Positions 11,740 through 26,080 of a stretch of DNA of 64,000 bases are shown in pieces. Each line of letters opens with the position of its first letter. Position 1 is the first letter of the stretch. Both the position numbers and the translations under genes were made by a program. The DNA lies in contig OX597819.1 in assembly GCA_951406725.2 (NCBI GenBank), forward strand, positions 99,634,001-99,698,000, given 5' to 3'. Origin of the DNA: Octopus vulgaris. Lineage: Eukaryota. A model generated the notes under the pieces. It did not search any database. It had not been told where the DNA came from and saw only the letters and a program-made list of their open reading frames with translations.

Positions 11740-14700
11740 TTTTAACATGATTCCAAAATTTCAAGAGAATTCGAAATCTTGGAGAAATTTGGACTATATT
11801 TTGGTGGGTTAGCAAACTACGTCATTCTTTCTGTACGGTTGTTTACATTCTCAAAATATATAAGCTTACTCTTTAATTATAAAAGTATATTATATGTTCT
11901 TACCTTTTTATTTAGTCGAAAGAACCACCGGAGAGCCCACAGTGCCAATGACAACAGAAGGTAAATAATATATTATAAATATTTCCTTATTCATTGTCTT
12001 CTATTCTTGAAATTTATTAAAAACACTTCGATTTGTTATGCATGTTTTGCGCTAAAATATATTAATCGATTTATGTATATATTCTGCTCATTGTGATTAG
12101 ACGGCGTTCTTGTGTAAGATCAACATTTTACAGATTCTTAAAGAGAAAATATTTCGAAATACAATATAGATAGTTCACCATTCTGAGATATGTCTGATTA
12201 TTACAAGGGTAGTATTCACTACAAGGTTGCAGTATCAGAAAATAAGGAAGGTCTCTTTGCCATGGTAAATAATTAGAAATTGGTCCACACGAACTCTTTA
12301 AAACATATTCGAGTGTTGTGTGTCCTTTTTACTAATGCATCTAGTTTAGCTATTACAGCAGCTATCAGTGGAGATTAAAAAGTTGACATTATCCGGAGCT
12401 GTATCGTCCCACCATTTATATTTATCATAGTTAAGCAATGCACACTCATATAATTGCATTACAGACTGATTATTCCATTGCACTAATATTGTATTGACGA
12501 AAATGCAAAACTTGGATTTGAAATATTTATATTAATTTAGTATTAGAATTCTTCAAGTTGTATTAAAATAGTTATTGTATGCATTATTCGTAAGAGAAAT
12601 ATATCATGTACAAGGTGTAAAAGATAAAAATAATTTGTTTGGTGTTAATAACAACATATATTTCGTAAGAAATAGAACTTTTATCATCGGTCATAAATTT
12701 ATTTTCGGCAGTGTATATACATTACTTTCTGGGATGTCGTTCTATAATTTGATCTTTAATATGTTTCCAAGATTTCAAGAAAAGTAGAAGTCTTGAGGAG
12801 ATTTAGACTCTATTTCGGTGTGTTTGCAAACTGCTTACTTCCTTCTGTACCACCGTTCACTTACTCAAGGTGAAAATCCAAATATCTACCTGCTTATTCC
12901 TTCCTTAATTATAAACGTATATTATATGTTCTTACATTTTTGAATTGCCAAAATAACCACAGAAATGTCCACATTGCACCCGACAGTGCCAACAACAGTG
13001 CCACCGACGGAGCTCTGGACAGAGCCAAAGACAACAGAAGGTAAATAATATTATATAAATATTTTTCTATTCATTGTCTTCCATTCTTGAAATTTATTAA
13101 AAGCAGATTGATTTGTTTTGCATATTTTGTGCTTAAAGCGATCAAGAGATTTATGTATATACACTTATCCTGAAGAGTTGACGTTCAAATGTAAGATAAT
13201 CAGTTTTACACATCATTGATGACAAAATATCGATAAGTAAAATATGGCTAGTTCACCATTCTGAAATATGTCTAGTTATAACGGGAGTTATAGTCCCGGC
13301 TAGATTGCAGTATCAAAATATACGGAAGGTCATTTTGCCATGGTTAATAATCAGGATATGGTCCAGACGAACTCTTTAAAACATATTCGAGTGTTGTGTG
13401 TCCTTTTTACTACTGCATCTAGTTTAGGTATTACAGCAGCTATCAGTACAGATTAAAAAGGTGACATTATCCGGACCTGTATCGTCCCACCATTTACGTT
13501 TATCATAGTTATGCAATGCACACTAATGTTATTGCATTACAGACTGATTATTCCATTGCACTAATATAGTATTGACAAAAATGCAAAACTTAAATTTGAA
13601 ACATTTATATTAAGTTAGAATTAGAATCCTTCAATTTGTATTAAAATAGTTATTGTATGCATCATTCGAATGAGAAATATATTATGTAAAAGGTGTAAAA
13701 TATGAAAATAATTTGTTTGGTGCTAGTAAGAAAATATCTTGTAAGAAATAGAACTTTTATCATCGTTCTAAAATTTATTTTCGGCAGTGTATACACTTTA
13801 CTTTCTGGTATGTCGTTCTATAATTTGATCTTTAACATGTTCCCAAGATTTCAAGAGAAGTAGAAGTCTTGAGTAGATTTGGACTATATTTCGGTGTGTT
13901 TGCAAACTGCTTTCTTCCTTCTGTACCACCGTTCACGTACTCAAGGTGAAAATCCAAATATCTACCTGCTTAGTCCTTAATTATAAAAGTATATTATATG
14001 TTCTTACATTTTTGAATTGCCAAAATAACCACAGAAATGTCCACATTGCACCCGACAGTGCCAACAACAGTGCCACCGACGGAGCTCTGGACAGAGCCAA
14101 AGACAACAGAAGGTAAATAATATTTTATAAATATTTTTCTATTCATTGTCTTCCATTCTTGAAATTTATTAAAAGCAGATTGATTTGATTTGCATATTTT
14201 GTGCTAAAAGCGATCAAGAGATTTATGTATATACACTTTTCCCGAAGAGTTGATGTTCTAATGTAAGATAACCAGTTTTACACATCATTGATGACAAAAT
14301 ATTGATGAGTAAAATATGGCTAGTTCACCATTCTGAAATATGTCTAGTTATAACGGGAGTTATATTCCCGGCCAGATTGCAGTATCAGAATATACGGAAG
14401 GTCATTTTGCCATGGTTAATAATCAGGAAATGGTGCAGACGAACTCTTTAAAACATATTCGAGTGTTGTGTGTCATTTTCACCAATGCATCTAGTTTAGC
14501 TATTACAGCAGCTATCAGTAGAGATTAAAAAGGTGACATTATCAGGACCTGTATCGTCCCACCATTTACGTTTATCATAGTTATGCAATGCACACTAATG
14601 TTATTGCATTACAGACTGATTATTCCATTGCACTAATATGGTATTGACAAAAATGCAAAACTTAAATTTGAAACAAATATATTAATTTAGCATTAGAATC

Positions 14701-23700: not shown

Positions 23701-26080
23701 CAGTGCCAACAACAGTGCCACCGACGGAGCTCTGGTCAGCGCCAAAGACAACAGAAGGTAAATAATATTTTATAAATATTTTTCTATTCATTGTCTTCCA
23801 TTCTTGAAATTTATTAAAAGCAGATTGATTTGATTTCATATTTTGTGCTAAAAGCGATCAAGAGATTTATGTATATACACTTTTCCCGAAGAGTTGAGGT
23901 TCTAATGCAAGATAACCAGTTTTACAAATCATTGATGACAAAATATTGATGAGTAAGATATGGCTAGTTCACCATTCTGAAATATGTCTAGTTATAACGG
24001 GAGTTATATTCCCGGCCAGATTGCAGTATCAGAATATACGGAAGGTCATTTTGCCATGGTTCATAATCAGGAAATGCTGCAGACGAACTCTTTAAAACAT
24101 ATTCGAGTATTTTGTGTCCTTTTTACTACTGCATCTAGTTTAGCTATTACAGCAGCTATCAGTAGAGATTAAAAAGGTGACATTATACGGAACTGTATCG
24201 TCCCACCATTTATGTTTATCATAGTTAAGCAATGCACACTAATGTTATTGCATTACAGACTGATTATTCCATTGCACTAATACGGTGTTGATAAAAATGT
24301 AAAACTTAAGTTTGAAACATTTATATTAATTTAGCATTAGAATCCTTCAAGTTGTATTAAAATAGTTATTGTATGCATCATTCGAATGAGAAATATATTA
24401 TGTATAAGGTGTAAAATATTAAAATAATTTGTTTGGTGCTAGTAAGAAAATATCTTGTAAGAAATAGGACTTTTATCATCGGTCTAAAATTTATTTTCGG
24501 CAGTGTATACACTTTACCTTCTGGTATGTCGTTCTATAATTTGATCTTTAACATGTTCCCACGATTTCAATAGAAGTAGAAGTCTTGAGTAGATTTGGAC
24601 TATATTTCGGTGTGTTTGCAAACTGCTTTCTTCCTTCTGTACCACCGTTCACTTACTCAAGGTGAAAATCCAAATATCTACCTGCTTACTCCTTAATTAT
24701 AAACGTATATTATATGCTCTTACATTTTTGAATTGCCAAAATAACCACAGAAATGTCCACATTGTACCCGACAGTGCCAACAACAGTGCCACCGACGGAG
24801 CTCTGGACAGAGCCAAAGACAACAGAAGGTAAATAATATTTTATAAATATTTTTCTATTCATTGTCTTCCATTCTTGAAATTTATTAAAAGCAGATTGAT
24901 TTGATTTGCATATTTTGTGCTAAGAGCTATCAAGAGATTTATGTATATACACTTTTCCTGAAGAGTTGACGTTCAAATGTAAGATAATCAGTTTTACACA
25001 TCATTGATGACAAAATATTGATAAGTAAAATATGGCTAGTTCACCATTCTGAAATATGTCTAGTTATAACGGGAGTTATATTCCCGGCCAGATTGCAGTA
25101 TCAGAATATACGGAAGGTCATTTTGCCATGGTTAATAATCAGGAAATGGTGCAGACGAACTCTTTAAAACATATTCGAGTATTTTGTGTCCTTTTTACTA
25201 CTGCATCTAGTTTAGCTATTACAGCAGCTATCAGTAGAGATTAAAAAGGTGACATTATACGGACCTGTATCATCCCACTATTTATGTTTATCATAGTTAA
25301 GCAATGCACAGTAATGTTATTGCATTACAGACTGATTATTCCATTGCACTAATACGGTATTGACAAAAATGCAAAACTTAAATTTGAAACATTTATATTA
25401 ATTTAGCATTAGAATCCTTAAAGTTGTATTAAAATAGTTATTGTATGCATCATTCGAATGAGAAATATATTAAGTATAAGGTGTAAAATATTAAAATAAT
25501 TTGTTTGGTGCTAGTAAGAAAATATCTTGTAAGAAATAGAACTTTTATCATCGCTCTAAAATTTATTTTCGGCAGTGTATACACTTTACTTTCTGGTATG
25601 TCGTTCTATAATTTGATCTTTAACATGTTCCCAAGATTTCAATAGAAGTAGAAATCTTGAGGGGGTTTGGACTATATTTCGGTGTGTTTGCAAACTGCTT
25701 TCTTCCTTCTGTACGACCGTTCACTTACTCAAGGTGAAAATCCAAATATCTACGTGCTTACTCCTTAATTATAAATGTATATTATGTATAAGGTGTAAAA
25801 TATTAAAATAATTTGTTTGTTGCTAGTAAGAAAATATCTTGTAAGAAATAGAACTTTTATCATTTATCTACCTGTTTATTCCTTAATTATAAACGTATAT
25901 TATATGTTCTTACATTTTTGAAATTGCCAAAATAACCACAGAAATGTCCACATTGCACCCGACAGTGCCAACAATAGTGCCGACGGAGCTCTGGACAGAG
26001 CCAATGACAACAGAAGGTAAATAATATTTTATAAATATTTTTCTATTCATTGTCTTCCATTCTTGAAATTTATTAAAAAA
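11740..26080 (+). repeat. Tandem array of ~1071-1072-bp exon+intron units: 13 near-identical exon copies plus a diverged first unit
   Basis: Exon spans measured from the TG position: 12948-13040, 14020-14112, 15092-15184, 16163-16255, 17234-17326, 18306-18398, 19378-19470, 20450-20542, 21521-21613, 22593-22685, 23665-23757, 24736-24828, 25927-26016. Each encodes (AKITT)[26 protein letters not shown] or a close variant and ends GAAG|GTAA. Confidence 0.95.
11916..11960 (+). CDS. 45-nt phase-1/1 stalk exon ([15 protein letters not shown])
   Basis: tttttatttag| ... acagaag|gtaaat. Confidence 0.75.

Follow-up and report, generated by a model that had tools for sequence, protein, structure and literature searches.

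Thirteen tandem mucin exons that lost their AG acceptor are probably spliced at in-frame internal CAGs in a MUC4-like octopus gene

What becomes of an exon whose splice acceptor is lost and which is then copied many times over? The question is raised by a window of 64,000 nucleotides (nt) of Octopus vulgaris DNA (G000:C6:99634001-99698000; positions are those of the window unless prefixed by G000), which holds a tandem array of 13 exon-plus-intron units in a gene that, judged from its sequence, is a MUC4-like membrane mucin (Table 1). Inspection of the array reveals TG at the homologous acceptor position, an in-frame CAG 15 nt downstream (+15) and an intact AAG/GTAA donor in 13/13 copies, as an earlier note on this DNA had described for the TG and the CAG. 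Copy 13 is slightly different, with gaaatTG rather than gaatTG and a 3-nt deletion that reduces its +15 exon to 75 nt. Copy 1 has in-frame CAGs at +15, +39, +51 and +75, making +15 one among several, and copies 3 and 8 have an additional in-frame AAG at +6. The array exons are very probably spliced at two of these CAGs, +15 and +39, which lie within the old exon, the ancestral AG having been lost before amplification. As a class the array is not dead, and its repeat likely survives as a shortened mucin unit of 18 or 26 residues. The phenomenon is real and the array is expressed, by a mechanism that is basically ordinary; exotic readings are unsupported.

The TG is the derived state and AG the ancestral one, because AG stands at the acceptor in 12/12 intact paralogous mucin exons of this gene and of the neighbouring upstream paralogous gene. 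The exons at 26143 and 26538, which the earlier note had set against the array, do carry AG. The count of 12 was made without two decayed paralogues with broken splice sites (about -4166 and 27180, that is, G000:C6 about 99629830-99629880 and window 27178-27200), which indicate that mucin exons in this gene also die. Only 102/898 intron columns vary among copies 1-12, and a TG common to 13 copies is therefore unsurprising, one pre-amplification mutation being sufficient. The polarity among paralogues and the TG in all copies thus support the earlier proposal that the mutation preceded amplification, and the likely history suggested by sequence comparison is a single acceptor mutation followed by stepwise duplication. 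Unit types differ at ~30-56 of some 1,070 sites, and a partial 5-unit higher-order duplication within the array makes pairs 2/7, 3/8, 5/9 and 6/10 closer. The 93-nt exon counted from the TG shows 5 variable sites where the intron rate would give ~10.6 (p about 0.04). The intron upstream of copy 13, a copy for which only +15 entry was seen, is rearranged by an internal duplication (25780-25862).

Splicing was read from the assembled contigs of four runs (X1, X2, X8 and X9), one per study from 24 listed, aligned to window 25842-26441; their RNA label is guessed and not on record, and two species labels occur among them. The contigs behave as spliced RNA, because GT..AG joints are present (26016 to 26143 in X1 and X2; 26235 to 26367 in 4/4 runs) and intron cover comes from a single contig of depth 3.1 only. 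The +15 CAG is joined in 2/4 runs. Record 1 of X1 enters copy 13 at 25942 from an array exon end and then takes in exons 26143, 26367 and 28806, and records 4-6 of X2 contain +15 entry for copy 13 and for one copy of type 1-12. The letters of copy 13 show 0 mismatches in X1 and X2.

The +39 CAG is joined to an exon end in 3/4 runs (X1, X8, X9), always as a contig of 84 nt, which corresponds to one 54-nt cycle and 30 nt more. In X2 joined +39 letters are not displayed; its record 7 sets in right at the AG that precedes +39, and a simulation yields such a break for a mix of +15 and +39 and not for +15 alone, so that +39 use is implied in the fourth run. The shifted CAG proposed in the earlier note thus stands at +15 in X1 and X2, while the use of +39 had been missed. 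X2 implies both unit lengths, although the number of units in a transcript cannot be read from pooled contigs. The depth of the 54-nt cycle versus that of neighbouring exon contigs (445.7 versus 76.5, 97.4 versus 13.5 and 13.3 versus 4.2 among X1, X8 and X9) weakly hints at several +39 units per transcript, though contig depth is no safe measure for ranking the parts of a gene. The letters of the 54-nt contig are the consensus of copies 1-12. In G000 the unit matches solely at the 13 array places, ~1,071 base pairs (bp) apart, which rules out a genomic 54-bp tandem repeat (minisatellite) there as the source of the cycle. In transcripts built with either acceptor, the reading frame is open into the second SEA-like exon.

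These contigs also bear on two less probable accounts. The RNA donors could carry a different genomic unit, for example a deletion that places a strong acceptor beside the 54-nt unit, as the very low score of the +39 CAG, the two species labels and the comparison with G000 DNA only would allow. Such a difference is improbable, given that the 54-nt letters equal the array consensus, that X2 has the +15..+39 letters joined to an identical exon body and that copy 13 is unaltered in X1 and X2. Alternatively, most copies could be skipped or dead in mature mRNA, and the cycle could stem from only a few of them or from circular, back-spliced RNA. The acceptors are indeed very weak, contigs cannot assign copies and the copy-13 record is found neither in X8 nor in X9; yet X1 record 1 holds an upstream array-type exon, copy 13 and exons 26143, 26367 and 28806 in one contig, the cycle in X1, X8 and X9 is 3 to 7 times as deep as the exon contigs next to it (no more than a weak hint), and donors and frames are intact in 13/13 copies. 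We consider this account very improbable, and the +15 and +39 joints refute, for the array as a class, the suggestion of the earlier note that it consists of dead exons, individual copies being indistinguishable.

The array provides no evidence for UG splicing or editing-dependent splicing, the surprising parts of the earlier note. Neither TG entry nor edited-site entry occurs in the contigs, and 25927-25939 is uncovered in 4/4 runs; contigs drop rare forms, and the missing cover therefore excludes main use only. Coleoids edit their RNA heavily, and adenosine-to-inosine editing of gAA would make a GAG-like acceptor that precedes the TG by 3 nt, at a position with the best U-tract context among the candidates (score 1.5 to 4.0). 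Against this, no junction at that site is present in the 4/4 contig sets and the target adenosine is predicted to be unpaired (0.93-1.0 in six folded copies of type 1-12), which leaves the edited acceptor barely credible. No long reverse-complement partner for gAA lies within the window. The TG itself could be the main acceptor of a TG-AG tandem giving a 93-nt exon: the frame is open from the TG, and the TG lies 15 nt from the AG versus a published limit of <=28 nt (PMC2374985, in part). The same partial source puts the share of candidate TGs that function at ~0.01% and, for the human AG>TG mutants it describes, reports that neighbouring AGs were always activated (PMC2374985). With no cover over the TG-specific letters, main use of the TG is highly improbable, and use in a minor fraction of transcripts is rather unlikely.

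Splicing at +15 and +39 raises the question of how such weak sites are chosen. Acceptors were scored with a small home-made matrix from 35 real acceptors of the locus (leave-one-out), and both CAGs (-5.0 and about -7.3) score under all 35 (minimum -1.3). A branch-like CTTAC lies 29 nt upstream of the +15 CAG, so that ordinary scanning predicts +15; a second branch-like motif, ATAAC, has its A at +8, 31 nt upstream of +39. Two tentative routes to +39, of equal standing, are that the predicted hairpin (Table 1) hides the +15 CAG, or that the A at +8 serves as a second branch point; marginally less plausible would be an effect of exon-definition factors, or of RNA donors whose genomes differ at the unit. 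Structural masking of acceptors is discussed for yeast in the part of PMC10711555 drawn on here. A role of the hairpin as a thermosensor was dropped, its predicted pairing being flat from 10 to 37 C. Separately, a TAATTAT box, a candidate branch point, stands ~40 nt upstream of mucin-exon acceptors (e.g. 12903-12912) and occurs in 12/14 aligned acceptor flanks, including 2/3 from the neighbouring gene.

The proposed history would begin with the loss of the AG from one ancestral mucin exon, after which unequal crossing-over multiplied the exon together with its intron. The loss may have been tolerated through Thr-Val and Thr-Glu codons (ACA-G), which would be ready-made phase-1 acceptors; the frame survives the acceptor shift because a Thr codon ahead of Val, Glu or Ala reads ACA-G and so contains a CAG in phase 1. 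Internal YAGs are in frame in 23/25 cases within 13 mucin exons versus 17/36 within 14 other exons, the paralogues in this comparison not being independent. The product would be a predicted O-glycosylated stalk of 18- or 26-residue units; P, T or S occupies 10/17 whole codons of the 54-nt unit, and exon-to-exon joints are present. Three features of cryptic-acceptor rescue are found here: the authentic AG is lost, a nearby exonic AG is used and the new sites are weaker. According to the portion of the DBASS3 account consulted (PMC1636351), human AG losses mostly activated exonic cryptic sites, at a median of 12 nt. The DBASS3 cryptic 3' splice sites resemble the array in that AG loss moves splicing to weaker downstream exonic AGs; in contrast to those patient mutations, the array is a fixed state of 13 copies with both sites in frame, and its +39 falls in the 30-40 nt zone described in that portion as depleted of cryptic sites (PMC1636351).

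Two duplicated stalk cassettes are present, and the array belongs to the second. The duplicated cassette at G000:C6:99604686-99609065 corresponds to window 11916-28879, each with mucin exons and a first SEA-like exon; in the upstream cassette, two mucin exons of 42 nt and the paralogue of exon 28806 (80% identity across 312 nt) end in identical phase. The cassettes are likely mutually exclusive, because both first SEA-like exons together would shift the frame, and they likely encode about 28 (short) versus several hundred (long) stalk residues. The O. sinensis model P0002 (XP_036359396.1) runs from the upstream paralogue of exon 28806 straight to 31814, omitting the array, and the X1 and X2 contigs pass through 28806 and hence the long cassette. 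The O. vulgaris model P0001 (CAI9724672.1) reads 12948-26806 in another, Asn/Asp/Arg-rich frame for ~430 residues, because it includes the upstream exon and apparently both cassettes. Two public gene models are thereby corrected, one off-frame over the array and the other without it. The cassettes are separated by an assembly gap; a simple scan found no signal-peptide first exon between the gap and 11900, and an independent long-cassette promoter is therefore unsupported. One X9 contig (depth 3.3) joins 26411 or 26806 to 31814, skipping the 74-nt exon 28806; this skipping would cause a frame shift and a stop before the membrane segment, and may be noise or a secreted form.

Several points weigh against splicing of the array at +15 and +39. 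Both CAG scores lie under those of all real acceptors, and efficient use is therefore unexpected. The hairpin does not exceed shuffled sequences in stability (z -1.5, not significant), and copy 13, with an identical predicted hairpin, is seen only at +15. The 54-nt cycle cannot separate copy n to n+1 joining from back-splicing, nor name the copies used, and the runs are contigs with a guessed RNA label from donors whose array copies could differ from G000. The 54-nt part by itself is not significantly conserved (p 0.12), and the O. sinensis RefSeq model P0002 lacks the whole array cassette.

Use of the two CAGs would make the array a natural, 13-fold replicated destroyed acceptor that survives since mucin codons supply in-frame spare acceptors, and would offer a concrete route for the shortening of mucin repeat units. 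Its copies are a ready test of spliceosome choice between two very weak AGs. A stronger proposal, which we regard as doubtful, is that the loss became a gain: each repeat exon would form a three-way switch (skip, 18 or 26 residues) set by the hairpin masking the first CAG and, with the mutually exclusive cassettes, a regulated 'spliced VNTR' (variable number tandem repeat) selected after amplification. If true, this switch and the short and long cassettes would allow the height of the glycocalyx to be adjusted by splicing from a single allele. What keeps the locus of interest is a lost acceptor amplified 13 times, splicing at a second CAG that is very weak, and the cassette switch.

The repeats of Xenopus integumentary mucins are exon cassettes. 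Of these mucins, FIM-C.1 is polymorphic by alternative splicing, a likeness in splicing-made length variation, and they are secreted and gel-forming, unlike the octopus membrane mucin (PMC7177656, in part). Chicken Muc13 likewise has near-identical PTS repeats as separate exons ahead of a membrane-proximal module, and its authors propose length control through splicing (PMC1552070, in part). The octopus gene differs in being MUC4-like (VWD, C8, EGF) and in having repeat exons with a lost acceptor and two alternative internal ones, none such appearing in the available part of the Muc13 account (PMC1552070). Published TG-AG tandem acceptors (PMC2374985, in part) share the geometry of the array, where the TG precedes a weak AG by 15 nt; in the octopus, no TG use is seen and the TG is a recent mutation rather than a conserved site. 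MUC4-like membrane mucin models (CAI9724672.1, XP_036359396.1) share VWD, C8-3_MUC4, EGF, a GDPH motif and a transmembrane segment, to which the octopus gene adds an exon-encoded stalk and, close to the membrane, a SEA-like module. A mucin-4-like protein, which may or may not be the product of the array gene, is reported from octopus skin mucus (PMC11431876). A literature search with little coverage of subscription journals found no paper on this locus.

Table 1. Features of the array and of the surrounding mucin gene, in window coordinates.
Feature	Position	Strand	Remarks
Mucin exon before array, AG acceptor	11916..11960	+	intron 86.5% like array intron
Predicted 9-bp hairpin, U-tract paired with +15 CAG, TG in loop	12934..12968	+	pair probability 0.93-1.0
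TG at ancestral acceptor, copy 1	12946..12947	+	identical in all 13
Tandem array, 13 exon-plus-intron units	12948..26016	+	period 1071-1072 bp (last 1191)
Array copy starts 1-7	12948, 14020, 15092, 16163, 17234, 18306, 19378	+	
Array copy starts 8-13	20450, 21521, 22593, 23665, 24736, 25927	+	
+15 CAG acceptor, copy 1	12960..12962	+	joints in X1 record 1, X2 records 4-6
+15 exon, copy 1	12963-13040	+	78 nt
+39 CAG acceptor, copy 1	12984..12986	+	joined letters in X1, X8, X9; contig break in X2
54-nt phase-1 exon, 18-residue Pro/Thr-rich unit, copy 1	12987..13040	+	84-nt (54+30) self-overlapping contigs in X1, X8, X9
Copy 13, +15 entry, joined to exon 26143	25942..26016	+	GT..AG joint in X1, X2
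Four AG-acceptor mucin exons (93, 45, 93, 45 nt) from 395-bp duplication	26143..26806	+	
First SEA-like exon, end of long-stalk cassette	28806..28879	+	paralogous exon upstream at G000:C6:99608991
Shared second SEA-like exon	31814..31875	+	
Third SEA-like exon with GSVIV motif	36330..36481	+	
Juxtamembrane mucin exon, AG acceptor	40043..40087	+	
Transmembrane exon	43258..43387	+	

The identity of the gene is indicated by a downstream exon that matches the O. vulgaris 'mucin-4-like' model P0001 (CAI9724672.1) at 100%. Pfam finds VWD, C8-3_MUC4 and EGF domains in P0001, and the exons for these map upstream of the window; PF06119 is a precomputed hit on a relative only. Downstream of the array follow the SEA-like module, a mucin exon, the transmembrane exon and Tyr-containing tail repeats. 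The SEA-like label, which is not confirmed, is based on GSVIV, which we take to be a SEA motif; the module gave no Pfam SEA hit and no PDB hit, and its structure model has a predicted local distance difference test (pLDDT) value of 41. Comparison of the 30-residue repeat with 1.84 billion representatives returned a single match, P0010 (E 2e-4), which was judged unrelated and has phage-tail-like Pfam hits. The cytoplasmic tail derives from duplicated exon pairs with Tyr-containing repeats (47775-47877, 51511-51543, 56689-56791 and 57935-57967). The upstream paralogous MUC4-like gene (G000:C6:99457167-99477400) has a duplicated pair of small mucin exons of 69 and 45 nt and a transmembrane exon. 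Retroelement-like long open frames, labelled by eye, occupy the intron upstream of the array at 3816-7439 (-), 9398-10854 (+) and about 1350-3050 (+).

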